A stretch of DNA of 64,000 bases from a phage. Of this stretch, positions 1,974 through 63,792 are shown piece by piece. Location of the stretch: the sequence record PQ536907.1; one strand, 5' to 3'. The first letter of the stretch is position 1; every line of letters starts with the position of its first letter. The position numbers and the translations under genes are program-made. A model generated the notes under the pieces. The model ran no database searches, was not told where the DNA came from, and saw only the letters and a list, made by a program, of their open reading frames with translations.

Positions 1974-3068
1974 ATGGCAATTGTTAAAGAAATAACTGCT
2001 GATTTAATTAAAAAGTCCGGTGAGAAAATTTCAGCCGGACAGAGTACTAAATCAGAAGTAGGAACTAAAACATACACTGCCCAGTTTCCAACTGGGCGTG
2101 CTAGTGGTAATGACACTACAGGGGACTTCCAGGTAACAGATCTATATAAGAATGGATTATTATTTACTGCATACAATATGTCATCTAGGGATTCTGGAAG
2201 TCTTAGATCGATGAGATCTAACTACTCTTCTTCATCTTCGAGTATTTTACGTACAGCTAGAAACACTATTAGTAGTACAGTATCAAAACTATCAAATGGA
2301 TTAATATCAAATAATAATTCAGGAACAATAAGTAAATCTCCTATCGCAAATATTCTTTTACCGAGATCTAAATCTGATGTTGATACATCATCACATAGAT
2401 TTAATGATGTTCAAGAAAGCCTCATCAGTAGAGGCGGAGGTACTGCTACTGGTGTGCTAAGTAATATTGCTTCAACCGCAGTATTTGGGGCGCTGGAAAG
2501 TATAACACAAGGTATAATGGCTGATAATAATGAACAGATTTATACGACAGCCAGAAGTATGTATGGTGGTGCTGAAAATAGAACTAAAGTGTTTACATGG
2601 GATTTGACTCCACGTTCAACAGAAGATTTAATGGCTATTATTAATATCTATCAATATTTTAACTATTTTTCTTATGGTGAAACGGGTAAATCTCAATATG
2701 CTGCTGAAATAAAGGGATATTTAGATGATTGGTATCGTTCTACGTTAATTGAACCTTTATCTCCGGAAGACGCAGCTAAAAATAAAACACTATTTGAGAA
2801 AATGACATCGAGTTTAACTAACGTTCTAGTAGTTTCAAACCCGACAGTTTGGATGGTGAAAAACTTTGGTGCAACATCTAAGTTTGATGGAAAAACGGAA
2901 ATATTTGGCCCATGCCAAATACAGAGCATCAGATTTGATAAAACACCTAATGGTAACTTTAACGGATTAGCTATTGCTCCAAACCTCCCTAGTACATTTA
3001 CTCTTGAGATTACTATGAGAGAAATTATCACGTTAAACCGTGCTTCTTTATATGCGGGGACTTTTTAA
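1974..3068 (+). CDS. 48: Baseplate tail-tube cap protein gp48
   Basis: 364 aa, matching T4 gp48; synteny 29-48-54. Confidence 0.88.
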   Translation: MAIVKEITADLIKKSGEKISAGQSTKSEVGTKTYTAQFPTGRASGNDTTGDFQVTDLYKNGLLFTAYNMSSRDSGSLRSMRSNYSSSSSSILRTARNTISSTVSKLSNGLISNNNSGTISKSPIANILLPRSKSDVDTSSHRFNDVQESLISRGGGTATGVLSNIASTAVFGALESITQGIMADNNEQIYTTARSMYGGAENRTKVFTWDLTPRSTEDLMAIINIYQYFNYFSYGETGKSQYAAEIKGYLDDWYRSTLIEPLSPEDAAKNKTLFEKMTSSLTNVLVVSNPTVWMVKNFGATSKFDGKTEIFGPCQIQSIRFDKTPNGNFNGLAIAPNLPSTFTLEITMREIITLNRASLYAGTF

Positions 3069-4033
3069 TGTATTCTTTAGAGGAATTTAATAATCAAGCA
3101 ATAAACGCAGATTTCCAGCGTAATAATATGTTTAGCTGCGTTTTTGCGACAACTCCATCAACTAAAAGCTCTTCGTTGATAAGTTCAATTAGCAACTTTT
3201 CTTATAATAACTTGGGTCTAAATTCAGACTGGTTAGGATTGTCTCAAGGCGATATTAATCAGGGAATTACCACGCTAATTACTGCTGGCACACAAAAACT
3301 GATAAGAAAATCAGGGGTTAGTAAATATCTTATTGGTGCCATGAGTCAACGTACAGTTCAAAGTTTATTGGGCTCATTTACAGTTGGTACATATTTAATT
3401 GACTTCTTTAATATGGCATATAACTCATCTGGATTGATGATATATTCTGTAAAAATGCCAGAGAATAGATTATCCTATGAAACTGACTGGAACTATAATT
3501 CTCCTAATATTCGTATAACTGGAAGAGAATTAGACCCTTTGGTTATTTCATTTAGAATGGATTCAGAAGCTTGTAACTATCGTGCAATGCAAGACTGGGT
3601 TAACTCCGTTCAAGACCCAGTAACTGGACTGCGTGCTTTGCCACAAGATGTCGAGGCAGATATTCAGGTTAATCTTCATTCTCGTAATGGATTGCCTCAT
3701 ACTGCGGTGATGTTCACCGGATGCATTCCAATATCAGTGAGCGCTCCTGAGTTATCATATGATGGAGATAACCAAATAACTACATTTGATGTTACTTTTG
3801 CGTACAGAGTGATGCAGGCTGGAGCGGTTGATAGGCAAGCTGCGCTTGAATGGCTTGAATCTGCTGCTATAAATGGTATTCAAAGCGTTCTCGGAAATAG
3901 TGGAGGTGTTACTGGACTATCTAATTCGCTTTCACGACTTAGTAGATTAGGAGGGACTGCTGGAAGCATTTCAAACATTAATACTATGACAGGAATTGTT
4001 AATTCGCAGAGTAAAATATTAGGAGCAATATAA
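3068..4033 (+). CDS. 54: Baseplate tail-tube initiator gp54
   Basis: 321 aa (T4 gp54 about 320 aa); start overlaps the gene 48 stop; synteny. Confidence 0.88.
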   Translation: MYSLEEFNNQAINADFQRNNMFSCVFATTPSTKSSSLISSISNFSYNNLGLNSDWLGLSQGDINQGITTLITAGTQKLIRKSGVSKYLIGAMSQRTVQSLLGSFTVGTYLIDFFNMAYNSSGLMIYSVKMPENRLSYETDWNYNSPNIRITGRELDPLVISFRMDSEACNYRAMQDWVNSVQDPVTGLRALPQDVEADIQVNLHSRNGLPHTAVMFTGCIPISVSAPELSYDGDNQITTFDVTFAYRVMQAGAVDRQAALEWLESAAINGIQSVLGNSGGVTGLSNSLSRLSRLGGTAGSISNINTMTGIVNSQSKILGAI

Positions 4034-4037
4034 CAAT

Positions 4038-4066
4038 GGGGACCTTTCGGTCCCCATATTTTTATT
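4038..4066 (+). terminator. Rho-independent terminator after gene 54
   Basis: Stem ggggacc / loop tttc / ggtcccc followed by a T-rich run (atatttttattt), directly after the gene 54 stop. Confidence 0.6.
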
Positions 4067-4352
4067 TACGGAATGAAATGAAAGCAGAAACTGAAGCAAC
4101 TAAACTGTCTTCAATATAAACTTCAATTTTTACCGGAGCTTCTGACTCGAATTTACCTGTTACTACACCTTGGAAAATACTTTCAGTTTGTTCTGGCTTT
4201 GAAAAATTTTCAGAAGGAAAAATTCCGAACTTTTTATCTGTTCCAAAAATTTTGATAAATTCATCATAAACTGCTTCATTAAAAGCATTATCAGCAGGAA
4301 TAACGCCTTCAACTACAAGTTCTTGACCCAAAAAGCGCAAAGAAGATTTCAT
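4062..4352 (-). CDS. Hypothetical protein (96 aa), first ORF of the 54-alt interval
   Basis: ORF with ATG start, preceded by an early-type promoter and leader; position corresponds to the small alt.-n ORFs of T4. Confidence 0.5.
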   Translation of the reverse strand: MKSSLRFLGQELVVEGVIPADNAFNEAVYDEFIKIFGTDKKFGIFPSENFSKPEQTESIFQGVVTGKFESEAPVKIEVYIEDSLVASVSAFISFRK

Positions 4353-4360
4353 TTTGTGTT

Positions 4361-4413
4361 CCTCATGTTATGTCAGTAAGACTACTATAACACAACACGA
4401 GGGACTTGTAAAC
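4361..4413 (-). promoter_or_regulatory. Early-type promoter plus 5' leader cassette (repeat copy 1)
   Basis: On the - strand: GTTTAC, about 17 nt, TATAGT-like -10, then leader ending in a GAGG ribosome-binding site; about 50 nt near-identical to 19682-19734. Confidence 0.5.
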
Positions 4414-6470
4414 TACATCTTGAACTTTTTAGACATTCCGTTGATGTTAACCAAAGAAGCCAAGATTTGAGAAACTTCGTTTTCCTCTTCTTTTGATTCT
4501 TCTACAAGGAATTGATTAAATCCAGCCATTGGACGAACTTTACCAGTTTCCATTAAATGATCGCCATCATATACTGATTCTTCTAATTGTTCAGAAGGAG
4601 GAACGATTGTACCTTCGATTAGATACTTGTTATAAGCAGTTTCTTTCATAAAGTACGTACTTACTTTATTAATCTTCAGTAAAATTCCACGCGGTAGAAT
4701 AACTTCAGCTTCTGATGGAAATCCTGATAAATGACCTGGAACGATAACTTTGATTCGCTCAGCCCCTTTAATTACCATACCTACGCTAGTTTCAGCATCT
4801 TCATTGGCATATGTAGAATGACTACCCATATGCATTAAATCTTCTGCATCAACGGAACCTTCTCCTTCGCCAGAAAATACTGCGCCGGAATCATCTAGAG
4901 CCATATAGTTTTTACCATGCTCACCGAAGATATTTGGTTTAAGTGATGTCGATACGAAGTTCTTGAAATAGAACATTTTGTTTTCAATGTTATGACGCAA
5001 AGTTTTAAAGGTAACTTCTTGTCCACGGTAAAGTGTAGTTCCTGGAGGAAGAACTGATCCTTTGGCAAAGGCAGAATCTAACGTCTCGATGTGATTAATA
5101 GCTCTTTCCATGTATTCTTCACGGGTAGAATCTGGTTTACCCAAAAGGAACGAGTTCATTTCAACATATGAATCTGCACAATAATCTTCAATTACATCAG
5201 ATTCAGCCTGAGTCAGTCCTTTTGGAGTTACTTCGGTGCTTGCGTATTCATATGCCTGAGCAGCAGATTCATTAATCAATTTATAAATGCCATTCATTAC
5301 AAATTGAATAATAGCTGTCTTTTCATCTGATGTAGCTTTAGAATCTTTAACTAAATCATTGATAATTTTCTTAATAACATCAAAGCTATTAGAAATATTA
5401 ATGTCAGCAAGATCGCTTAAAATTTTATCAGTTTTATAATCAAAGAATTCTTTATTCTTTAAATATTCTTGAGAACCTTGATATGTTATATCGCTCTGCA
5501 GCTTGATAGATGGATCGCGTAAACGTGCATGGGTCAATGCAATATGATTTCGGAAACTTTCTAGTTCATAATCATTAGATTTAAAACGAGAAGCACTTCT
5601 CATACCACCGATAGCTCCTTTGCTGAAGTTTGAACCAATCTGGATAACGCCAGAGTTCATTGGTCCTTCTGCTTTATATACCGGAACTTTAGATTCAAAC
5701 TCTTGATATTTCTTGGCAGCGAAGCTATCACCCTGAAGTGAAGCATCAACAGTAGAATATTGAGCTTGTGCTGCTAATCGACGACTAATTTTAGTTTTCT
5801 GAATAACAGCTTGATCAGTGCGCTTATCATTTTCTAAAGCAATAGAAGCAGCAACAGCGACAGCTTTAGGAACAGCATTACCTGTTTTAACGTCTACATA
5901 AACATCACCAACCTTTGATTCAACTTTTGTGAATAACTCAGTTGAAATAGGAGGTACACCTGGAATGTCTTCTAAATTGGCATTTTTACGGTAAACCATA
6001 ATATATGCATATTTTTTATCATAGTCCCAGATTTCCTTTAAAAGAACATATCGACCTGCTCCCTTAGTACGTACTAAACGGTCAGCAATAACTTGCATTT
6101 GACGAGCTGCGCCATTTGTTTTACTTTTTAGTACGCGGAATAGGCATGCGTCGATTTTATACTGTTTCATTGTTTGAAGAGCAGTATCAAAAACAGCATT
6201 AATGACGCCAATTGGATTTCCACCCAAGTTTCTAAGCTTAACCAGCGATAATTTCTCGTTGACACCTATCATTACGATATGCATCATTTTATCGCCCGGC
6301 TTAACGTTTTTATTTGTATCACCACCGGAGGTGTATGTACAAAATCTAAATCCAGGAAGCACGCTTTCTTCGCCGACTTGAATAGCAAAAATTTGTGGTA
6401 TTTTATGCTTAGGATTTAAGTTAACAACCGGCGCCGAAGCGCCGTCAAATAATTCTGTAATAAGTTCCAT
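4413..6470 (-). CDS. Alt-like mono-ADP-ribosyltransferase paralog (685 aa)
   Basis: N-terminus MELITELFD...LNPK.KIPQIF shared with the neighbouring Alt; C-terminal R-S-E motifs (LYRG, STS, EAEVILPRG). Confidence 0.8.
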   Translation of the reverse strand: MELITELFDGASAPVVNLNPKHKIPQIFAIQVGEESVLPGFRFCTYTSGGDTNKNVKPGDKMMHIVMIGVNEKLSLVKLRNLGGNPIGVINAVFDTALQTMKQYKIDACLFRVLKSKTNGAARQMQVIADRLVRTKGAGRYVLLKEIWDYDKKYAYIMVYRKNANLEDIPGVPPISTELFTKVESKVGDVYVDVKTGNAVPKAVAVAASIALENDKRTDQAVIQKTKISRRLAAQAQYSTVDASLQGDSFAAKKYQEFESKVPVYKAEGPMNSGVIQIGSNFSKGAIGGMRSASRFKSNDYELESFRNHIALTHARLRDPSIKLQSDITYQGSQEYLKNKEFFDYKTDKILSDLADINISNSFDVIKKIINDLVKDSKATSDEKTAIIQFVMNGIYKLINESAAQAYEYASTEVTPKGLTQAESDVIEDYCADSYVEMNSFLLGKPDSTREEYMERAINHIETLDSAFAKGSVLPPGTTLYRGQEVTFKTLRHNIENKMFYFKNFVSTSLKPNIFGEHGKNYMALDDSGAVFSGEGEGSVDAEDLMHMGSHSTYANEDAETSVGMVIKGAERIKVIVPGHLSGFPSEAEVILPRGILLKINKVSTYFMKETAYNKYLIEGTIVPPSEQLEESVYDGDHLMETGKVRPMAGFNQFLVEESKEEENEVSQILASLVNINGMSKKFKM

Positions 6471-6473
6471 GAT

Positions 6474-8570
6474 TTATCCTTGAACGAACTTGTAAGGCAT
6501 GTTTGTAATATCTATGCAAGACGCAATAATTCCAAGAGATGATTCTACTTTCTGTTTAACGTTTGATGAAACAAATGATGCAAAGTCAACTCTGTCTTCT
6601 ACTTCAATATCACCTGTCATTGCAACTACTTCACCGGTTTCCATTAAATGGTCTCCGTCATAGATTACCGATTCGGTGAGCTCTTCCGTAGTCATAACTT
6701 CAGCTTGAATGAGTTTTGTATTATTAGATGTTGTTCCGTCATTATTAGAAGCATCAGTTATTTTATTAACTTTGACCATCAATCCACGCGGTAGAATAAC
6801 TTCAGCTTCTGTTGCTATTCCGAGACTTCCTGGATATACAACATTAACTTTATGAGCTCCATCAATTGCCCATCCTATTTGAACTTTAACGTATTCAGGA
6901 TTTTCTTTATACGCTCTTATTTCGTTTGGATTAATAGTTATTCCTTCTTCATTTTTATCAACTGTCAATTCATTACGAGCTTCTGGTTCTAAAAGACCAA
7001 TACCAGCATGTGTAATTCCAAAACGCCCAAAAATGATAGGAGTTAAAGAAGTAGATACAAAATTTCTGAAATAGAACACTTTATTTTTAACTAGCGCTTC
7101 GTATATAGGAGCAGTCATACTTTGAGCACGATAAACTGTAATGCCTTCCGGTATGCGGTCACCATTTTCAAAAGCTGAATCTAAATTATTTATAGCAGAT
7201 TCAATTTCTTTTTCACTCATTACATCATATCGTTCTGGATTGTAACGACCTAAAAGAAGATTATTGATGTCAGTATATCCTGAACCACAATACTCTCTAA
7301 TGCCGCGCTTTTGTGATGGAGTATATTTAGAACCATCACGGGCAATAGTAATATCAATCATTGGACCTGCACCAATTCCAGAAAAACTATAAATCATTCT
7401 TTTGAGGAATTTAGTTTTTGCTGCATTCCAGGCATTTTTAGTTATTTCTTCCCAGACTTCATCTGGCTGCCCTTTACGAGTTTTATTATGTTTATCAAGC
7501 CAATTATCTTTATATTCTTCAAAGAGTTGATTAACAGCTGCTGCGTATTTCTCTAAACATTTTATTGAAGTAGTTGGTTCATTTTTAATCGCATTAAGAA
7601 TTACATCTTTAATTTTTTCAGAAACTTCATTAACCTCACTTTTTGAAAAGAATTTATAGTCATAATGAAGTTCATCTGCAGTTCCTTCAGCAATAATTTT
7701 TGCTGCCTTAGTTTTAGAAGCTAATGAATTAATTCCAATTTTCATTTCTTCTGCTTCGGGAATTAAAGGTGCAGTAGCTGGTTTATTAAAATTAGCTGCT
7801 GTAGATTCATACTTCTGGAATAATTCACTTTCAAATCTAGAAGATTCCAATGACTGGCTTTGTGCAATTGCTCTACGGGAAATTTTAACTTTAACGATTA
7901 CAGCTTGGTCAGAACGTTTATCATTTTCTTGTGCAATAGATGCTGCAATTGCCTCATTTTTGGTTACTTGGGCTCCAGTATCTTTATTGATATAAACATC
8001 ACCGACTTTCGATTCAACTTTAGTAAAGAGCTCGGTACTAATTTCCGGAACTCCTGGAATGTCTTCTAGTGATACATTTTTACGATGTATAAGAATATAT
8101 GCATACTTTTTATCGTAATCCCAGAGTTCCTTAAGAAGGACGTATCTGCCACCTGAACGACTACGGATAAGTCTATCAGCAATAACTTGAATTTGTCGAG
8201 CTTGACCAGCGGTTTTAGACTTAAGAATACGAAGCATACAAGCATCAATTTTATATTGACGCATTGTTTGCATTGCAACAGTAAAAACTGAATTGATATA
8301 ATTAATTGGGCTTGGACCAAGACCTTTTAATTTAGCAATTGAACCTTTAGCAGTTAATGTAAAAGGAACGATATGCATCATTTTATCGCCCATTTTTAAA
8401 TCGCGATTAGTATCACCTCCAGATGTATACGTGCATAAACGAAAGCCTGGTTGTTCAATTGCATCATCAACATGAACTGAAAAAATTTGTGGTATTTTCT
8501 TCTTTGGATTTAAGTTTGTAATCGGAAGAGTAGTATCTTCGTCAAATAATTCTGTAATGAGTTCCATCAT
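6474..8570 (-). CDS. alt: RNA polymerase ADP-ribosyltransferase Alt (698 aa), capsid-packaged type
   Basis: N-terminal MELITELFD resembles a capsid-targeting sequence; C-terminal R-S-E motifs (YRA, STS, EAEVILPRG); adjacent to the ligase as alt is in T4; late promoter upstream. Confidence 0.8.
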   Translation of the reverse strand: MMELITELFDEDTTLPITNLNPKKKIPQIFSVHVDDAIEQPGFRLCTYTSGGDTNRDLKMGDKMMHIVPFTLTAKGSIAKLKGLGPSPINYINSVFTVAMQTMRQYKIDACMLRILKSKTAGQARQIQVIADRLIRSRSGGRYVLLKELWDYDKKYAYILIHRKNVSLEDIPGVPEISTELFTKVESKVGDVYINKDTGAQVTKNEAIAASIAQENDKRSDQAVIVKVKISRRAIAQSQSLESSRFESELFQKYESTAANFNKPATAPLIPEAEEMKIGINSLASKTKAAKIIAEGTADELHYDYKFFSKSEVNEVSEKIKDVILNAIKNEPTTSIKCLEKYAAAVNQLFEEYKDNWLDKHNKTRKGQPDEVWEEITKNAWNAAKTKFLKRMIYSFSGIGAGPMIDITIARDGSKYTPSQKRGIREYCGSGYTDINNLLLGRYNPERYDVMSEKEIESAINNLDSAFENGDRIPEGITVYRAQSMTAPIYEALVKNKVFYFRNFVSTSLTPIIFGRFGITHAGIGLLEPEARNELTVDKNEEGITINPNEIRAYKENPEYVKVQIGWAIDGAHKVNVVYPGSLGIATEAEVILPRGLMVKVNKITDASNNDGTTSNNTKLIQAEVMTTEELTESVIYDGDHLMETGEVVAMTGDIEVEDRVDFASFVSSNVKQKVESSLGIIASCIDITNMPYKFVQG

Positions 8571-8590: not shown

Positions 8591-8598
8591 TATTTATA
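8591..8598 (-). promoter_or_regulatory. Late promoter (TATAAATA) upstream of alt
   Basis: Exact TATAAATA on the - strand about 20-28 nt upstream of the alt ATG. Confidence 0.55.
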
Positions 8599-13312: not shown

Positions 13313-13422
13313 TTTATTCTCCTTTGTTTGTGTAAGATAATACTATCACAAAGGAACCGTACTGTAAACAACTTTGTGCAATCTTTGGAAAATAAAAAAG
13401 GACTCCCGAAGGAGTCCTCAAC

Positions 13423-18829: not shown

Positions 18830-19179
18830 TTAGAAAGGTCCTGGATGTCTTCTGCGAACTTGTTGAAGGAGTTATTGATTTGTTTTTCAACCAATCCTGG
18901 CTTATGAGCCACCACATCCGCCTTCTTTGCGTCTTTGCGCAGTTTTTCATTTTCACGCTCAATAGCAGCAATTGCCTCACGATTTTTATTATTCATCGCA
19001 TCAATATAATTATACTGAATTCGCAAATTATTTAATGCTAAGGCGTTTTCATTGGCCGTTTTTGTAATTTCAGTAACCGATGTTTCTAATCTTTCTACCT
19101 TATTTTTTAAAATAATAGATGTTCCGCCAAATACTATTACAAGTAATAGCAAACCTGCTGTCGTATTACTTAATTGCAT
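18826..19179 (-). CDS. Inner-membrane spanin (i-spanin)
   Basis: N-terminal transmembrane segment followed by a long coiled-coil-like charged helix; adjacent to the lipoprotein. Confidence 0.65.
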   Translation of the reverse strand: MQLSNTTAGLLLLVIVFGGTSIILKNKVERLETSVTEITKTANENALALNNLRIQYNYIDAMNNKNREAIAAIERENEKLRKDAKKADVVAHKPGLVEKQINNSFNKFAEDIQDLSK

Positions 19180-19676
19180 AAAGTTTTAATAACCTCTATA
19201 ATATCGTCTTGAGAAAGACCGTTAATTAAAATATGATGTTCCGCCGGAGATTTAGAAATTTTAAAGCATGCCGCAACATCTTCTGCCATATCTGATGCAC
19301 TACGATTTGGATTACTAATCCCAAGGCGGTGTTTTCCCGTTAAAGGATTAACGATGATATAGCATTTACAGTTGTTAATATGAACATTAGGTTGAGTCTG
19401 ATTAATGAACACATCACAATCATATTTCGCAAGCTGATTTTCTAAAAAGACTTTCATCTCCTCAACCGCATCAGGAAGCATATCACGGGCTTGCTCAAGA
19501 CGACGATTTCGATATTCTTTAATGGTCGTTTTCCGCTTGACTTGCTTAGCTAAATCTTTCTTAAGATCGGTGATATATCCAACTCGACGATTTCCTTTGA
19601 ATACAGAAATCCCATCTGTAGTATCACCGTATGCTTCAACGACCATTTCAGTAGTAATAAGTTGTAAATCCATCAT
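19170..19676 (-). CDS. alc: Alc-like protein (inhibitor of host transcription on cytosine DNA)
   Basis: 168 aa (T4 Alc 167 aa); position between the pseT block and rnlA as in T4. Confidence 0.65.
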   Translation of the reverse strand: MMDLQLITTEMVVEAYGDTTDGISVFKGNRRVGYITDLKKDLAKQVKRKTTIKEYRNRRLEQARDMLPDAVEEMKVFLENQLAKYDCDVFINQTQPNVHINNCKCYIIVNPLTGKHRLGISNPNRSASDMAEDVAACFKISKSPAEHHILINGLSQDDIIEVIKTLCN

Positions 19677-19681
19677 AAAGT

Positions 19682-19734
19682 CCTCATGTTATGTCAGTAA
19701 GACTACTATAACACAACACGAGGAACTTGTAAAC
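19682..19734 (-). promoter_or_regulatory. Early-type promoter plus 5' leader cassette (repeat copy 2, upstream of alc)
   Basis: About 50 nt near-identical (one mismatch) to 4361-4413, including GTTTAC, a -10-like element and leader up to the ribosome-binding site. Confidence 0.5.
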
Positions 19735-19737
19735 AGC

Positions 19738-21325
<1,588 letters not shown>

Positions 21326-27722: not shown

Positions 27723-27780
27723 TTTATTCTCCTCAAGTTGATAAGGCTATAGTATCATTACCATAGCCCGTTGTAAACAA

Positions 27781-28695: not shown

Positions 28696-28789
28696 ATTAT
28701 TTTCCTCTTTAATCATCAGCAGTATTGCCGATAGTTGTATAGTACCATGGAAGGACAAGGATGTAAACCGTTTTGTGAAAAAATTTTTG

Positions 28790-28818
28790 AAATAAAAAAG
28801 GGGACCCTAGAGGTCCCC
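28790..28818 (-). terminator. Rho-independent terminator downstream of gene 32
   Basis: On the - strand: stem ggggacc...ggtcccc followed by a T7 run; immediately followed by an early-type promoter. Confidence 0.6.
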
Positions 28819-40800: not shown

Positions 40801-41069
40801 CTGTGAGCGGTGCTACTGCAGGGTCAAATATAGCCAAAACTTCTTCAGACGGTGCTCATACTCATACTTGGTCTGGTACTACAAGCACTACAGGTAACCA
40901 TGCTCACACAGTAGGTATTGGTGCTCATACCCATACTGTAGGTATCGGTGCTCATACCCACACGGTAGCAATTGGCTCGCATGGTCATACTATCACTGTA
41001 AATAGTACAGGTAATACAGAAAACACGGTTAAAAACATCGCTTTTAACTATATCGTTCGTTTAGCATAA
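37845..41069 (+). CDS. 37: Long tail fibre distal subunit gp37 (receptor-binding tip, T4 type)
   Basis: 1074 aa; C-terminal tandem His boxes ([24 protein letters not shown]); followed by a 183-aa gp38 chaperone rather than an adhesin-type gp38. Confidence 0.93.
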
Positions 41070-45053: not shown

Positions 45054-45145
45054 TTTTTAATCTCCGTAATTCTGTATCAGTAGTTGATAGTTGTATAGTA
45101 CCACAGTATGCTTTGGTTGTAAACCGTTTTATGAAAAAATTTTTG

Positions 45146-45176
45146 AAATAAAAAAGGGAGAGCCGAGGCTCTCCCT
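45146..45176 (-). terminator. Rho-independent terminator followed by the early promoter for motA
   Basis: On the - strand: stem gggagagcc / loop tcg / ggctctccc plus a T run, then GTTTAC...TGGTACTAT promoter-like elements. Confidence 0.55.
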
Positions 45177-48373: not shown

Positions 48374-48616
48374 TTTCTGTTCCTCCGTAGTTGATAGTTG
48401 TATAGTACCACAGAGGAACAGTCTTGTAAACAACTTTTTTAAAAATATTCGTAATAAATGTGAATACCAATCACTACTGCCGAAACTTGTGCAACCAACC
48501 ATGCACACGCAATAAGTACAGAATTCAAAATTTTCATAATAACCTCATCACAAAAGTAAATGTTAAACAAATTACTGGAATACTAATTAACCAAACAAAA
48601 CACCACCATAATGAAC

Positions 48617-48880: not shown

Positions 48881-48960
48881 TTTTACTCCTCCGTAGCTGA
48901 TAGTTGTATAGTACCACGGTCCTTGTGGTATGTAAACCATTTTGTGAAATTTTTTTTTTT

Positions 48961-49518
48961 TTAAATGGAAAGATACCATCCGTTGTAGTTGCTTTTTCTT
49001 ACAACCTTACGAAGGTCTTCTCTGTCACCGATGAACTTCGGAGTGTACTGGATGACACCTGGATGAATTTCTTTAGTGTTGAATATAATTATACAGTCAG
49101 CGACTTGATGATTTAGAATGGGCCCTAGATTTATTCCAGAACCGTATGGATACTCTCCGCTGCATCCTGTTGTTACAGAAATCCAACGTGAGTCAGTTTG
49201 GTGTGTCTTAACTTCTACACGAAGCCCGCAGTATCTTGGATGCGCCAATACATCCCATGCGTATGTATACGGGTCATTAACATCCTCTTGGCCTTTATTA
49301 ACATACCCGCTTAACCAATCTGCTACAAAAAATTCTGCGTACACAGCGATACGGCATCTTTCGATAACTTCTGCTTTATCCTGGTTCGGGTTTTGTTTTA
49401 AAGAGTATCTTGCTGTATCAGCAATTTTGACCTTCATTTCACTAGTCAAGTCACTGTTCGATAGGGTAAATGTCGGAATCTGAAATAGTCTCTGTAAACC
49501 CGGATTCGTTTTCTGCAT
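48961..49518 (-). CDS. denB: Endonuclease IV (cytosine-DNA-specific)
   Basis: 185 aa (T4 EndoIV length); position upstream of the ndd cluster and downstream of rIIB as in T4. Confidence 0.7.
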   Translation of the reverse strand: MQKTNPGLQRLFQIPTFTLSNSDLTSEMKVKIADTARYSLKQNPNQDKAEVIERCRIAVYAEFFVADWLSGYVNKGQEDVNDPYTYAWDVLAHPRYCGLRVEVKTHQTDSRWISVTTGCSGEYPYGSGINLGPILNHQVADCIIIFNTKEIHPGVIQYTPKFIGDREDLRKVVRKSNYNGWYLSI

Positions 49519-53204: not shown

Positions 53205-55022
53205 CTACTGGCTCATCCATTCTTTACGAAGGTCAGCATTATCTCCCATGAGCATTTCAAAAAGCTCTTTCCAGTTCTCAGGAAGTTTAACAACATCATA
53301 TACTGGATTTTGAATCATCTCACGATATTCAGATTTTTCCAAAGAGCCAAGTCCTTTAATATAACGGATGCTATGTTTAGGTAGAGCATCTTTGGCACTC
53401 TCATATTCAGCGACTGTATAAAACCATTCTTGTTTTTTACCGACCTGAGCGATGATTACCGGAGTTTTGACAAAGCGAATTCGTCCTTGCTCAAACAATT
53501 CTGGCCAATTACTAAAAAACCCGAGCAGAGAAGGATAAATGCTTCCTAGACCATCATGGTCAGCATCAGTCATAATAGCAATATTGCGATAATTCAAGTT
53601 TTCAGCCTTTTCACCAAGAACTAGACCAGTGATTGCGCAAATATCAAATAGTTCTTTGTTTTTAAGCATATCAGCATATGACATACCCCAACTGTTGAGA
53701 ACTTTACCACGCAATGGATAACCACCATGAAGTTCTTTATCACGAACATCAATAAGATATCCGATAGCCGAATCACCCTCAGTCAGGAAAAGAGTAGTGT
53801 CAGCATCTTTACCACAAAGATTCGCTTTGATATGTTTATGAACTTTAGCTTTAGAAGCCTTTTTAGCTGCTTTAGTTTCAGCTGCTTTTTCTGCTGCCAA
53901 TTTACGGGCCAAGGCAGCTTCAATAATTGGCATCAAAATAGCTTCATTATTTAGAATAGCGCGTGAAATCTTTTTAGCATCAAGCTGAATATGACTACGA
54001 ATTTCGCCAAATGGAGAAGTCAAACGCTCTTTAGTTTGAGAATCAAATCGCATGTTTTTCATATCACGAACAAACATAACGATAGTCAAACATTCTTTAA
54101 CACGTGCTTTAGTTACATCAATTTTGAACTTACGTTTGATTTGTGGAATAAGGTCTTCACAAATATCATCCATAACACAGTCAATGTGATGGCCACCATT
54201 CTTAGTGTGAATGTTATTCACGTAAGTTAATTGACGAAATCCATCCGGTGAACGACCAACCGCAATAGAACAATTTTCTTGTTCTTGAACAATAGCATGT
54301 TCATCATACTGTCGTGCATATTTCTTAAAATTGCCCTGAACCTTTTTACCATTAAAGGTAAATTGAATATCAGGATAAACAACAGCAAGTGTCTGGAGAC
54401 GATCTAGTGTAATGTCAAGATAAACTTGGGACAGCTCATTAGTTTCAAATGACATAAAATCTGGAATGAAAGTAACACGAGTTCCTTTCCATTTTCCAGG
54501 AATAGTTTCCCAGGATTTATTTTCCATGCCATTTGAACAACGAACTACAATATTATTTTGACCATCGCCAGTTTCACCGACAAACATCACAGAAAAAATG
54601 TTAGTTAAACTAGAACCAACACCATTCATACCACCGGTGACACGTTCTTTATCATCACCAAAGTTACCACCCGCTTTTGGAATAGTCCAAGCAGCAACTG
54701 GACCAGGAATTTCTTCACCGGTAGGTGTTTTAACCATCGCTTGTGGAATACCACGACCGTTATCTTCAACTGTTACTTGATTGTTTTTAATAGTAACATT
54801 AATTTTATTTGCGAATTTAAACTTAGTACGAATACCTTCATCGACTGAGTTATCGATAATTTCATCAATAAGCTTAACAAGACCAGGTACATACTGAACA
54901 CTTTCCCATTTACCAAACAGAAAGCGCTCATGCATTTCATTAGCAGAAGAGCCAATGTACATGCCACTACGCTTTTTGATATGTTCAATATCGCTCAGAA
55001 TTTTAATTTCATTCTTAATCAT
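53205..55022 (-). CDS. 39: DNA topoisomerase II large (ATPase) subunit gp39, uninterrupted
   Basis: 605 aa from the ATG (the track ORF uses a GTG one codon upstream); single ORF spanning what T4 splits into genes 39 and 60. Confidence 0.92.
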   Translation of the reverse strand: MIKNEIKILSDIEHIKKRSGMYIGSSANEMHERFLFGKWESVQYVPGLVKLIDEIIDNSVDEGIRTKFKFANKINVTIKNNQVTVEDNGRGIPQAMVKTPTGEEIPGPVAAWTIPKAGGNFGDDKERVTGGMNGVGSSLTNIFSVMFVGETGDGQNNIVVRCSNGMENKSWETIPGKWKGTRVTFIPDFMSFETNELSQVYLDITLDRLQTLAVVYPDIQFTFNGKKVQGNFKKYARQYDEHAIVQEQENCSIAVGRSPDGFRQLTYVNNIHTKNGGHHIDCVMDDICEDLIPQIKRKFKIDVTKARVKECLTIVMFVRDMKNMRFDSQTKERLTSPFGEIRSHIQLDAKKISRAILNNEAILMPIIEAALARKLAAEKAAETKAAKKASKAKVHKHIKANLCGKDADTTLFLTEGDSAIGYLIDVRDKELHGGYPLRGKVLNSWGMSYADMLKNKELFDICAITGLVLGEKAENLNYRNIAIMTDADHDGLGSIYPSLLGFFSNWPELFEQGRIRFVKTPVIIAQVGKKQEWFYTVAEYESAKDALPKHSIRYIKGLGSLEKSEYREMIQNPVYDVVKLPENWKELFEMLMGDNADLRKEWMSQ

Positions 55023-56846: not shown

Positions 56847-56931
56847 GTTGTTTTCTGTATCAGTAGTTGATATTGATATAGTACCATAATCAACTACTGA
56901 TGTATATAGTTTTATGAAAAAATTTTAAACT

Positions 56932-57423
56932 TTATGCATAGCGAGCTTTGCTATAGTGTTTAATCCAACTTTCAGGAATGACTTTATATGTTCCTAAAAA
57001 TACCGTGTTGTACAGCTTAACACCGTCTTCTACCCATTGATCGGTAATGTATGCACACATAGCGCGAGTACGGTTAACAACACCTTCCTCACCTTCAGTA
57101 AATTCAAACTCATAAGGAGCAACGAACTTGATAGCTTGACCGAGTTTCCACTTAAAGTCTACACCTACATGCGAAGTATCAATCGTTTCAATTCCTTTAG
57201 CGGGAACAGCTTTCAAAAACGCAGGCTCAAGAAATTTCCATCGAACATAACCAAACTGAGGTTTAGACATTCCATCTTTAGGAATGATACGCACTTTTAC
57301 TTCAGAATCTTCATCTTTAACACCATGTTTAAGCTGAATGCTTACGACTTCAACCAATTTTCCTGCTGCTTTAGAACGGGATTTATCAGATACACGAGCA
57401 ATTTCACCGATATTAATATTCAT
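56932..57423 (-). CDS. MotB-like protein (163 aa)
   Basis: Size and position consistent with T4 motB (162 aa); C-terminal ITDQWVEDGVKLYNTVFLGTYKVIP shared with the next ORF. Confidence 0.5.
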   Translation of the reverse strand: MNINIGEIARVSDKSRSKAAGKLVEVVSIQLKHGVKDEDSEVKVRIIPKDGMSKPQFGYVRWKFLEPAFLKAVPAKGIETIDTSHVGVDFKWKLGQAIKFVAPYEFEFTEGEEGVVNRTRAMCAYITDQWVEDGVKLYNTVFLGTYKVIPESWIKHYSKARYA

Positions 57424-63725: not shown

Positions 63726-63792
63726 GATAGCCTCCGTATACTTCAGAAGCTATCATATCATCGTTAGAAAGGAAAGTAAACAACTTTTTGAA

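Follow-up and report, generated by a model that had tools for sequence, protein, structure and literature searches.

Analysis of a 64,000-nt stretch of phage DNA (PQ536907.1; hereafter, the window) revealed a 54-nt cassette which is present in two nearly identical copies, one upstream of alt.-3 and the other upstream of alc, and in which an early promoter, an RNA hairpin and the Shine-Dalgarno (SD) sequence of the next gene constitute one interlocked unit; an earlier note on this DNA had recognized the repeat but overlooked the hairpin behind the identity of the leaders. We consider it on balance probable that, owing to the cassette, alc and alt.-3 are translated only from the early RNA of their own promoters, and we are more confident that the hairpin itself is a selected part of the unit.

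A duplicated cassette in Tequatrovirus genomes

Self-comparison of the window showed that the minus-strand segments 4360-4413 (copy A) and 19681-19734 (copy B) are identical at 53 of the 54 nt, the single difference being at position 11 (C in copy A, T in copy B). Copy A (minus strand, 4360-4413) has the sequence GTTTACAAGTCCCTCGTGTTGTGTTATAGTAGTCTTACTGACATAACATGAGGA, and both copies (minus strand, 4413-4360 and 19734-19681) can be written as GTTTACAAGT(C/T)CCTCGTGTTGTGTTATAGTAGTCTTACTGACATAACATGAGGA. The two are direct copies separated by 15.3 kb, and their identity, which is one base longer than first given, extends from the G of GTTTAC to the A of the SD sequence GAGGA, with unrelated flanks beyond these points in both cases. 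Exactly two matches to the 54-nt element were found in the window at up to three mismatches, and none in 100 dinucleotide shuffles. The cassette pair is an outlier among the 14 early-type promoters of the window: the next best pair shares 40/54 positions and the median is 25/54. Consequently, the possibility that the repeat is just one of many equally similar early promoters is rejected, and the claim of the earlier note that identity through the leader exceeds what a promoter consensus would give is borne out. Indeed, the T4 early promoter consensus (UP, -35 GTTTAC, TGn and -10; Hinton, 2010, PMC2988021), to which the GTTTACA, 17-nt spacer, TGn and TATAGT of the cassette conform, accounts for identities of ~25-40/54, but not for 53/54 or for an identical spacer and leader.

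The window is a segment of a Tequatrovirus (T4-like) genome: positions 3000-6000 are 98-99% identical to phages JK38 and slur07, and ~500 T-even records match. A 94-nt query matched 589 records at 1088 places, with two places in almost every Tequatrovirus record, and both copies, upstream of alt.-3 and alc, are found in T4, T2, PST and ~500 other records of the genus. The alc copy of T4 is the same as the alt.-3 copy of the window, and the alt.-3 copy of T4 carries one other change, G to A. Scans of IMG/VR with the two halves of the cassette yielded nine loci on seven contigs; since these were few, the comparative loci were drawn from GenBank phage records. The features of the two loci in the window are as follows.

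Copy A locus (alt.-3)
4360-4413, minus strand: cassette copy A, 54 nt, taking up all of the space that separates the Alt-like gene from alt.-3
4407-4413, minus strand: -35 element GTTTACA of T4 early type (TTTACA at 4407-4412)
4384-4392, minus strand: extended -10 element TGTTATAGT (TGn followed by TATAGT at 4384-4389), 17 nt after TTTACA
4377, minus strand: predicted transcription start, an A, the seventh nucleotide after the -10 element
4361-4402, minus strand: predicted RNA hairpin (dG -22 kcal/mol, z -5.8)
4389-4402, minus strand: 5' arm of the hairpin, formed by the promoter spacer together with base 1 of the -10 element
4383-4386/4375-4378 (stem) and 4379-4382 (loop), minus strand: apical part of the hairpin, above an AU bulge
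4361-4374, minus strand: 3' arm of the hairpin, comprising the leader and including GAGG
4360-4364, minus strand: SD sequence GAGGA of alt.-3, 7 nt before the ATG at 4352
4062-4352, minus strand: alt.-3, 96 aa, equivalent to T4 alt.-3
4413-6470, minus strand: Alt-like ADP-ribosyltransferase paralogue, 685 aa, the putative source of readthrough RNA into copy A
6474-8570, minus strand: alt, 698 aa, in tandem with the Alt-like gene
8591-8598, minus strand: late-promoter motif TATAAATA, just upstream of alt

Copy B locus (alc)
19681-19734, minus strand: cassette copy B, 54 nt, with T rather than C at position 11, beginning 4 nt past the stop codon of gene 63/rnlA
19705-19713, minus strand: extended -10 element TGTTATAGT (-35 element GTTTAC at 19729-19734)
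19698, minus strand: predicted transcription start
19678-19728, minus strand: predicted RNA hairpin (dG about -24 to -27 kcal/mol, z about -5)
19170-19676, minus strand: alc, inhibitor of host transcription, with the SD sequence GAGGA at 19681-19685
19738-20862, minus strand: gene 63/rnlA, RNA ligase 1, the putative source of readthrough RNA into copy B
20910-20914 (TGCTT) and 20889-20894 (TACTAT), minus strand: putative middle-promoter-like elements upstream of gene 63/rnlA

The start codon annotated for alc in T4 corresponds to the second ATG of the gene in the window, at 19673. The full-length, tandem Alt-type genes upstream of copy A share DNA blocks that are 70-80% identical, which make up five of the repeat families of the window (D2, D3, D6, D7 and D17); T4 retains only fragments (alt.-1/alt.-2) of the second Alt-type gene, and PST has a single alt.

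Promoter, hairpin and SD sequence are interlocked

Three functions appear to be packed into the 54 nt of the cassette, namely, a strong sigma-70 early promoter, an 18-bp RNA hairpin and the SD sequence GAGG(A), which is located in the 3' arm of that hairpin. The promoter scan identified TTTACA and TATAGT separated by 17 nt, with TG before the -10 element, and, by its sequence, the promoter is of the T4 early type of extended sigma-70 promoters. The first base of GTTTACA in copy A is also the last base of the TAG stop codon of the Alt-like gene (4413-4415), so that the cassette constitutes the entire intergenic region, and copy B starts 4 nt past the rnlA stop codon, which leaves no room for any other signal. 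At both loci, the sequence upstream of the -35 element, where an AT-rich, UP-like tract would be expected in a PeSL cassette (see below), is the 3' end of a coding gene; an A-run, CTAAAAAG, lies ~15 nt upstream in copy A and an AT-rich tract further upstream in copy B.

In the lower stem of the hairpin, CCUCGUGUUGUGUU pairs with GACAUAACAUGAGG over 14 bp, including three G-U pairs, and, above the AU bulge, AGUA and UACU pair around the loop GUCU. The promoter spacer supplies the 5' arm and the leader supplies the 3' arm, with the -10 hexamer topping the stem, such that the GAGG of the SD sequence, which lies 7 nt before the ATG at both loci, is paired with CCUC of the spacer in the predicted fold. 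Copy B forms the same 42-nt hairpin (19682-19723), extended by AAGU/ACUU from the local flanks. The hairpin of copy A alone (52 nt) has a free energy of -22.0 kcal/mol (z -5.8), and, when folded in a 76-nt context, copy A gives -23.6 kcal/mol (z -4.9) and copy B -27.3 kcal/mol (z -5.1); in each of these three cases, none of 200 shuffled sequences folded as well. The need for complementarity to the spacer explains why both copies have the same leader, and the unit can therefore move only as a whole.

We also searched the cassette for other known signals. Neither stem is followed by a U-tract, the sequences past them being AACACAAAAUG and ACUUUAUGAUG, the GC content of the stem is no more than moderate and the terminator scan reported nothing at the cassette, though it detected the bidirectional terminator hairpin at 4036-4057, between the convergent genes alt.-3 and 54; accordingly, an intrinsic terminator, which the cassette resembles in being a stable stem-loop directly after a stop codon, is rejected. 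A late promoter inside the cassette is likewise rejected, given that TATAAATA is missing there, as is a RegB target, for which the cassette lacks GGAG. A search of the whole window against Rfam 15 produced no family match at the gathering score, only chance-level miRNA matches with E about 1.

A candidate switch based on the origin of the transcript

Transcription from the cassette's own promoter would begin inside the hairpin, yielding an mRNA devoid of the 5' arm and with a free SD sequence, whereas RNA reading in from the upstream gene would contain both arms and have its SD sequence locked away. We infer the start site from its spacing to the -10 element, but any start 5-9 nt past that element would fall in the loop or on the 3' side of the hairpin, beyond the 5' arm. 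For RNA beginning at the predicted +1, the folding energy is a mere -2 kcal/mol or so, and in 261-nt readthrough contexts the predicted probability that the SD sequence is unpaired is ~0 at both loci, consistent with its occlusion in vivo. The weaknesses of the hairpin are the three G-U pairs and the bulge; furthermore, a ribosome terminating at the upstream stop codon, 11 nt before the stem, could open the hairpin partly.

The readthrough RNA would originate from rnlA before alc, and from alt and the Alt-like gene, driven by a late promoter, before alt.-3; the late-promoter motif at 8591-8598 is the likely origin of late transcripts toward alt.-3. In time-course omics of T4 (PMC9697503), alt.-3 and alc behave as early genes in terms of both RNA and protein, alt as a late gene and alt.-1/-2 as middle genes; rnlA is early as RNA and late as protein. 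Both cassettes are thus located directly behind later-transcribed genes, with no space for a terminator. If the proposed mechanism holds, the synthesis of Alc and Alt.-3 would be essentially confined to immediate-early RNA initiated at their own promoters, despite the middle and late RNA reading through from upstream, and polycistronic phage RNA would thereby have a simple, protein-free means of timing its translation. The mechanism would also account for the conservation of some T4 early promoters well past the polymerase contacts. From a practical standpoint, such cassettes might serve as compact, insulated expression units for phage engineering and should be recognized by annotation pipelines.

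Pairing between spacer and SD sequence at alc in other genera

Orthologues of Alc were identified by tblastn in many genera. The order rnlA-alc is kept across genera: in the rnlA-linked loci (nine orthologues), alc is found ~60 nt past the preceding gene, with GTTTAC-N18-(-10) in the gap; the arrangement differs in CJ20, which has no GTTTAC, and in S13, which has TTGACA. Pairing of the promoter spacer with the SD sequence of alc, by arms of different sequence, is predicted in the following seven lineages.

Tequatrovirus: z about -5 to -5.8
Karamvirus: z -6.4
Citrobacter phage Ursula: z -4.9
Klebsiella phage Phi_KR1: z -3.4
Dhakavirus Bp7: pairing seen in the fold (no z-score)
Klebsiella phage Biddle: z -4.2
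Marfavirus R3_1: pairing seen in the fold (no z-score)

In every one of them, the end of the 3' arm coincides exactly with the SD sequence. Alignment of the alc promoter regions of eight phages, and of trimmed hairpins, with MAFFT followed by RNAalifold did not register the stems, because the offsets of the arms from the -35 element vary by genus and the alignment locks on the -10 element; the energies of cognate and non-cognate duplexes were compared instead. Across five independent lineages, cognate spacer-leader duplexes have a mean energy of -20.6 kcal/mol versus -11.6 kcal/mol for non-cognate ones, and the true assignment of spacers to leaders is the best of the 120 permutations. This covariation of spacer and SD region across lineages argues that the pairing has been selected.

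The SD sequence is left free at alc in Mosigvirus, Serratia phage PS2, Acinetobacter phage Stupor, CJ20 and S13. Given that these phages, as well as all examined alt.-3 orthologues from outside Tequatrovirus, leave the SD sequence free, its sequestration is not indispensable. The alc leader of Mosigvirus (CAACAACACGAGG) forms a Watson-Crick duplex of -21.7 kcal/mol with the Tequatrovirus spacer and pairs at only -3.6 kcal/mol with its own, which suggests that the upstream (promoter) half of the Mosigvirus alc promoter has been exchanged.

Variation within Tequatrovirus

Both loci were compared in T4, T2, PST, SHFML-26, BCPShso_001 and HY03, together with the IMG/VR contigs. The genomes of the genus are 95-99% identical at these loci, and conservation among orthologues alone therefore says little. 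Within the 14-bp lower stem, five kinds of substitution were observed (C3U, C5U, G6A, G30A and, on the U5 background, G40A), all five of which keep the pairing, the last being a compensatory exchange of C-G for U-A; the remaining changes affect the bulge, the loop or the apical stem of 4 bp. Such a pattern is consistent with selection on the stem, albeit weakly on its own, since five pairing-preserving kinds would be expected with a probability of about 0.61^5 (~0.08) if transitions were random. Depending on the genome, the paralogous copies differ by 0, 1, 3 or 5 bases, and strict concerted evolution of the two is accordingly rejected; those genomes in which the copies are 3-5 bases apart still retain the lower-stem pairing. 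A few derived states are common to both loci, namely, T at position 11, G6A in SHFML-26 and G22A in T2, and could reflect either occasional gene conversion or recurrent transitions.

Hairpins at other early promoters of the window

We surveyed the 14 minus-strand early promoters of the window that are followed by an SD sequence and an ATG. A hairpin straddling the -10 element is predicted at 8 of the 14 with z of -4.4 or lower and at a ninth with z -2.8, and in six to seven of them, the SD sequence pairs with bases upstream of the predicted start. With a fixed 55-nt window, z of -4 or lower was obtained for 6/14 promoter-bearing gene starts versus 0/61 promoterless ones (Mann-Whitney p = 2.4e-4). 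The alc/alt.-3 cassette is a duplicated instance of this wider design.

Apart from the cassette, the minus-strand promoters located in hairpins with z of -4.4 or lower have their -35 elements at 63781, 58580, 48431, 27778, 16409 and 12977, and further hairpin promoters have theirs at 13369 (z -2.8) and 28768 (z -1.8). Pairing between the spacer and the downstream SD sequence occurs at five of these promoters (63781, 58580, 48431, 13369 and 28768); for instance, CUGUUCCUC is paired with GAGGAACAG at 48431. The hairpins at 27778, 16409 and 12977 cover the -10 element and stop short of the SD sequence, which points to a second or different role of such stems, for example, attenuation, as proposed for PeSLs (see below).

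A possible, if doubtful, generalization is that T4-type early promoters are, as a rule, built into hairpins which pair the spacer with the ribosome-binding site of the next gene, amounting to genome-wide translational insulation. Under this tentative scheme, the early genes that are lined up in long co-directional transcription units would each be translated mainly from transcripts of their own promoters and readthrough RNA would be silent, with alc as the conserved prototype. Movement and recombination would then be restricted to whole or half cassettes, owing to the interlocking, and this would account for both the copying from alc to alt.-3 and the chimeric Mosigvirus promoters described below, and the role of PeSL stem-loops would be in translation rather than termination.

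Two further sequence families were noticed among the early promoters. Five of them (family D1; 28730-28802, 45086-45158, 48393-48465, 48899-48971 and 56869-56941), with pairwise identities of up to 86% over 73 nt, have in common the extended -10/start region TGGTACTATACAACTATC and an upstream A/T tract and differ in their spacers. In addition, an in-spacer hairpin of the type CCAC-AAGGA(N)-GTGG, with the SD-like AAGGA in its loop, occurs at 53205 and 48937 of the window, in other genera and in the Mosigvirus alc promoter.

Alternative roles of the hairpin

The hairpin might mainly attenuate or terminate RNA polymerase arriving from the upstream gene, with the overlap of the SD sequence being secondary. 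This role has a precedent in the PeSL stem-loops of RB49 and phi1, which are positioned between the -35 and -10 elements or over the latter and cut the expression of a downstream lacZ like a strong terminator (PMC2839356), and would suit the three hairpin-bearing early promoters of the window in which the SD sequence is not in the stem. Nevertheless, termination would not need a 3' arm ending exactly on the SD sequence in seven alc lineages, and, with neither a U-tract nor a hit in the terminator scan at the cassette, we hold attenuation to be unlikely as the principal function. It is improbable, in our opinion, that the hairpin instead forms a stabilizing 3' end or processing site of the rnlA and alt mRNAs, guarding them against exonucleases after cleavage and exerting no regulation downstream. 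A stable stem placed directly after the upstream stop codon at both loci is what such a role would call for, but it leaves unexplained why the -10 element is in the apical stem and the SD sequence in the base, both at alc in several genera and at several promoters of the window, and why the same hairpin follows two unrelated upstream genes and always precedes a gene with its own early promoter.

Alternatively, the identity of the copies could be no more than the footprint of copying or gene conversion, the palindrome being incidental and its conservation a consequence of the low divergence within Tequatrovirus. The 95-99% identity of the genomes and the derived states common to the two loci, which hint at conversion, fit such a history; however, spacer-SD pairing is kept with different sequences at alc of distant genera, hairpins with z of -4 or lower are confined to promoter-bearing starts, and the lower stem stays paired even where the paralogues have drifted 3-5 bases apart, all of which render an incidental palindrome very improbable. 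Hardly any credence can be given to a DNA-level role, in which the inverted repeat would act as an operator or cruciform over the -10 element, perhaps in the shut-off of early promoters. A dyad is centred on the -10 element at 8/14 early promoters of the window (z of -4.4 or lower), and the mechanism of early-promoter shut-off has been described as not fully understood (PMC3014915), but the arms differ completely between promoters and genera, so that there is no common protein-binding site, and the stems use G-U pairs, swapped for A-U or G-C, which fits pairing in RNA and not in DNA. Sequestration of the SD sequence on readthrough RNA is the reading that we favour in the comparisons below.

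Relationship to known promoter-hairpin systems

PeSLs (promoter-early stem-loop cassettes) of T4-type phages are composites of an early promoter, a stem-loop and an SD sequence, are repeated ahead of unrelated small genes and bring about the shuffling of genes (Arbiol et al., 2010, PMC2839356; Comeau et al., 2014, PMC4122927). In RB49 and phi1, their stems are often located between the -35 and -10 elements or over the -10 element and have been interpreted and tested as terminators (PMC2839356), and in PST and T4, the stems have been placed upstream of the promoter (PMC2839356; PMC4122927). The comparison with such cassettes, to which the earlier note had pointed, proved apt: the element described here is a compact, intergenic sigma-70-type early promoter (~17 bp spacing) with a stem-loop over the -10 element and the SD sequence and start codon of the next gene at its 3' end, it precedes unrelated genes, and the junctions of PeSL exchange fall between the SD sequence and the -10 element, as in the chimeric Mosigvirus copies. 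It differs from PeSLs in that its stem reaches and includes the SD sequence, in that each genome carries two copies 15 kb apart, one of which precedes the well-characterized alc, and in the lack of clustering in hyperplastic regions beside ORFans, of a link to indel or replacement junctions and of a layout as flanking pairs able to give mini-circles. If sequestration is indeed the function of the cassette, a concrete, testable role would also be at hand for the stem-loops in the PeSL-type cassettes by which T4-like phages exchange genes.

Hairpins that sequester the ribosome-binding site and have a promoter embedded in them are known in T4 for e, soc, 49, 25/26, I-TevI/II/III and segB (PMC3014915; PMC2988022). 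As in e, soc, 49 and I-TevI, the helix of the cassette is predicted to bury the SD sequence on RNA started upstream, and the promoter inside the hairpin would yield RNA without the 5' arm. Edgell et al. describe every such case as a late gene carried on polycistronic RNA of the early or middle class (PMC2988022). In these genes, the embedded promoter is a late one (TATAAATA), whereas that of the cassette is an early sigma-70 promoter, and the RNA to be silenced would come from early, middle or late transcription upstream, reversing the temporal logic. Given that the embedded promoter is of the early type, that alc and alt.-3 are early genes and that TATAAATA is missing, the cassette is a variant rather than a member of the T4 class of late promoters in hairpins. 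If correct, our proposal would turn around the logic of the lysozyme, soc and I-TevI hairpins, treated in reviews as a feature of late genes, and bring early genes of a very well studied phage under the same paradigm.

Origin and mobility of the cassette

In Gaprivervirus, Mosigvirus, Marfavirus and Kanagawavirus, the alt.-3 orthologues are preceded by a different early promoter, located directly after alt, which contains only a small in-spacer hairpin (of the CAC-AAGGA-GTG type) and leaves the SD sequence free. Because the SD-pairing design is found at alc in many genera and at alt.-3 only in Tequatrovirus, we infer that the alt.-3 copy most likely derives from copying of the alc cassette in an ancestor of Tequatrovirus. 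The junctions of the copied segment would lie in the common GTTTAC and GAGGA consensus, and purifying selection would have held the alt.-3 copy nearly unchanged ever since.

Between denB and ndd in Mosigvirus, an unrelated ORF of 66 aa follows a segment (TATAGTAGTCCTACTGAAACATGAGGAACACAAAATG) that nearly matches the alt.-3 version of the cassette from the -10 element to the ATG. This chimeric promoter has a different spacer with a short hairpin of its own, GUAGGA/UCCUAC, which does not cover the SD sequence. Together with the alt.-3 copy, it indicates that the unit or its halves have moved, and the view of the cassette as portable gains from the two unrelated genes that it serves and from the third, in Mosigvirus, preceded by its -10-to-ATG half. 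By contrast, the suggestion that it is a recombination hotspot is only weakly supported, and for the present genomes it is unsupported: neither an indel junction nor a rearrangement breakpoint was found at the cassette in T4, T2, PST, SHFML-26, BCPShso_001 or HY03, and the chimeric Mosigvirus promoters are the only hint of past exchange. Were the two direct copies to undergo a crossover, ~15 kb would be lost, and with it genes 30 (DNA ligase) and 31 (co-chaperonin). In HY03 (KR269718.1), at ~16006, the region upstream of the Alt-like fragment is joined, in inverted orientation, to genes of the rI/tk/regB/e region; this join is either a rearrangement or an assembly artefact, and its junction is ~1 kb from the cassette rather than at it.

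Other repeats in the window

Two pairs of near-identical terminator hairpins with a GC clamp were observed, at 8591-8624/55062-55095 and at 49548-49588/49780-49820, of the GGCCCGAAGGCC and GGGCCGAAGCCC types. Finally, three tandem 27-nt repeats (CATGCTCACACAGTAGGTATTGGTGCT and variants thereof) are present at 40899-40979, apparently in a plus-strand coding region, and, being in phase, would encode a repeated 9-residue motif containing His.
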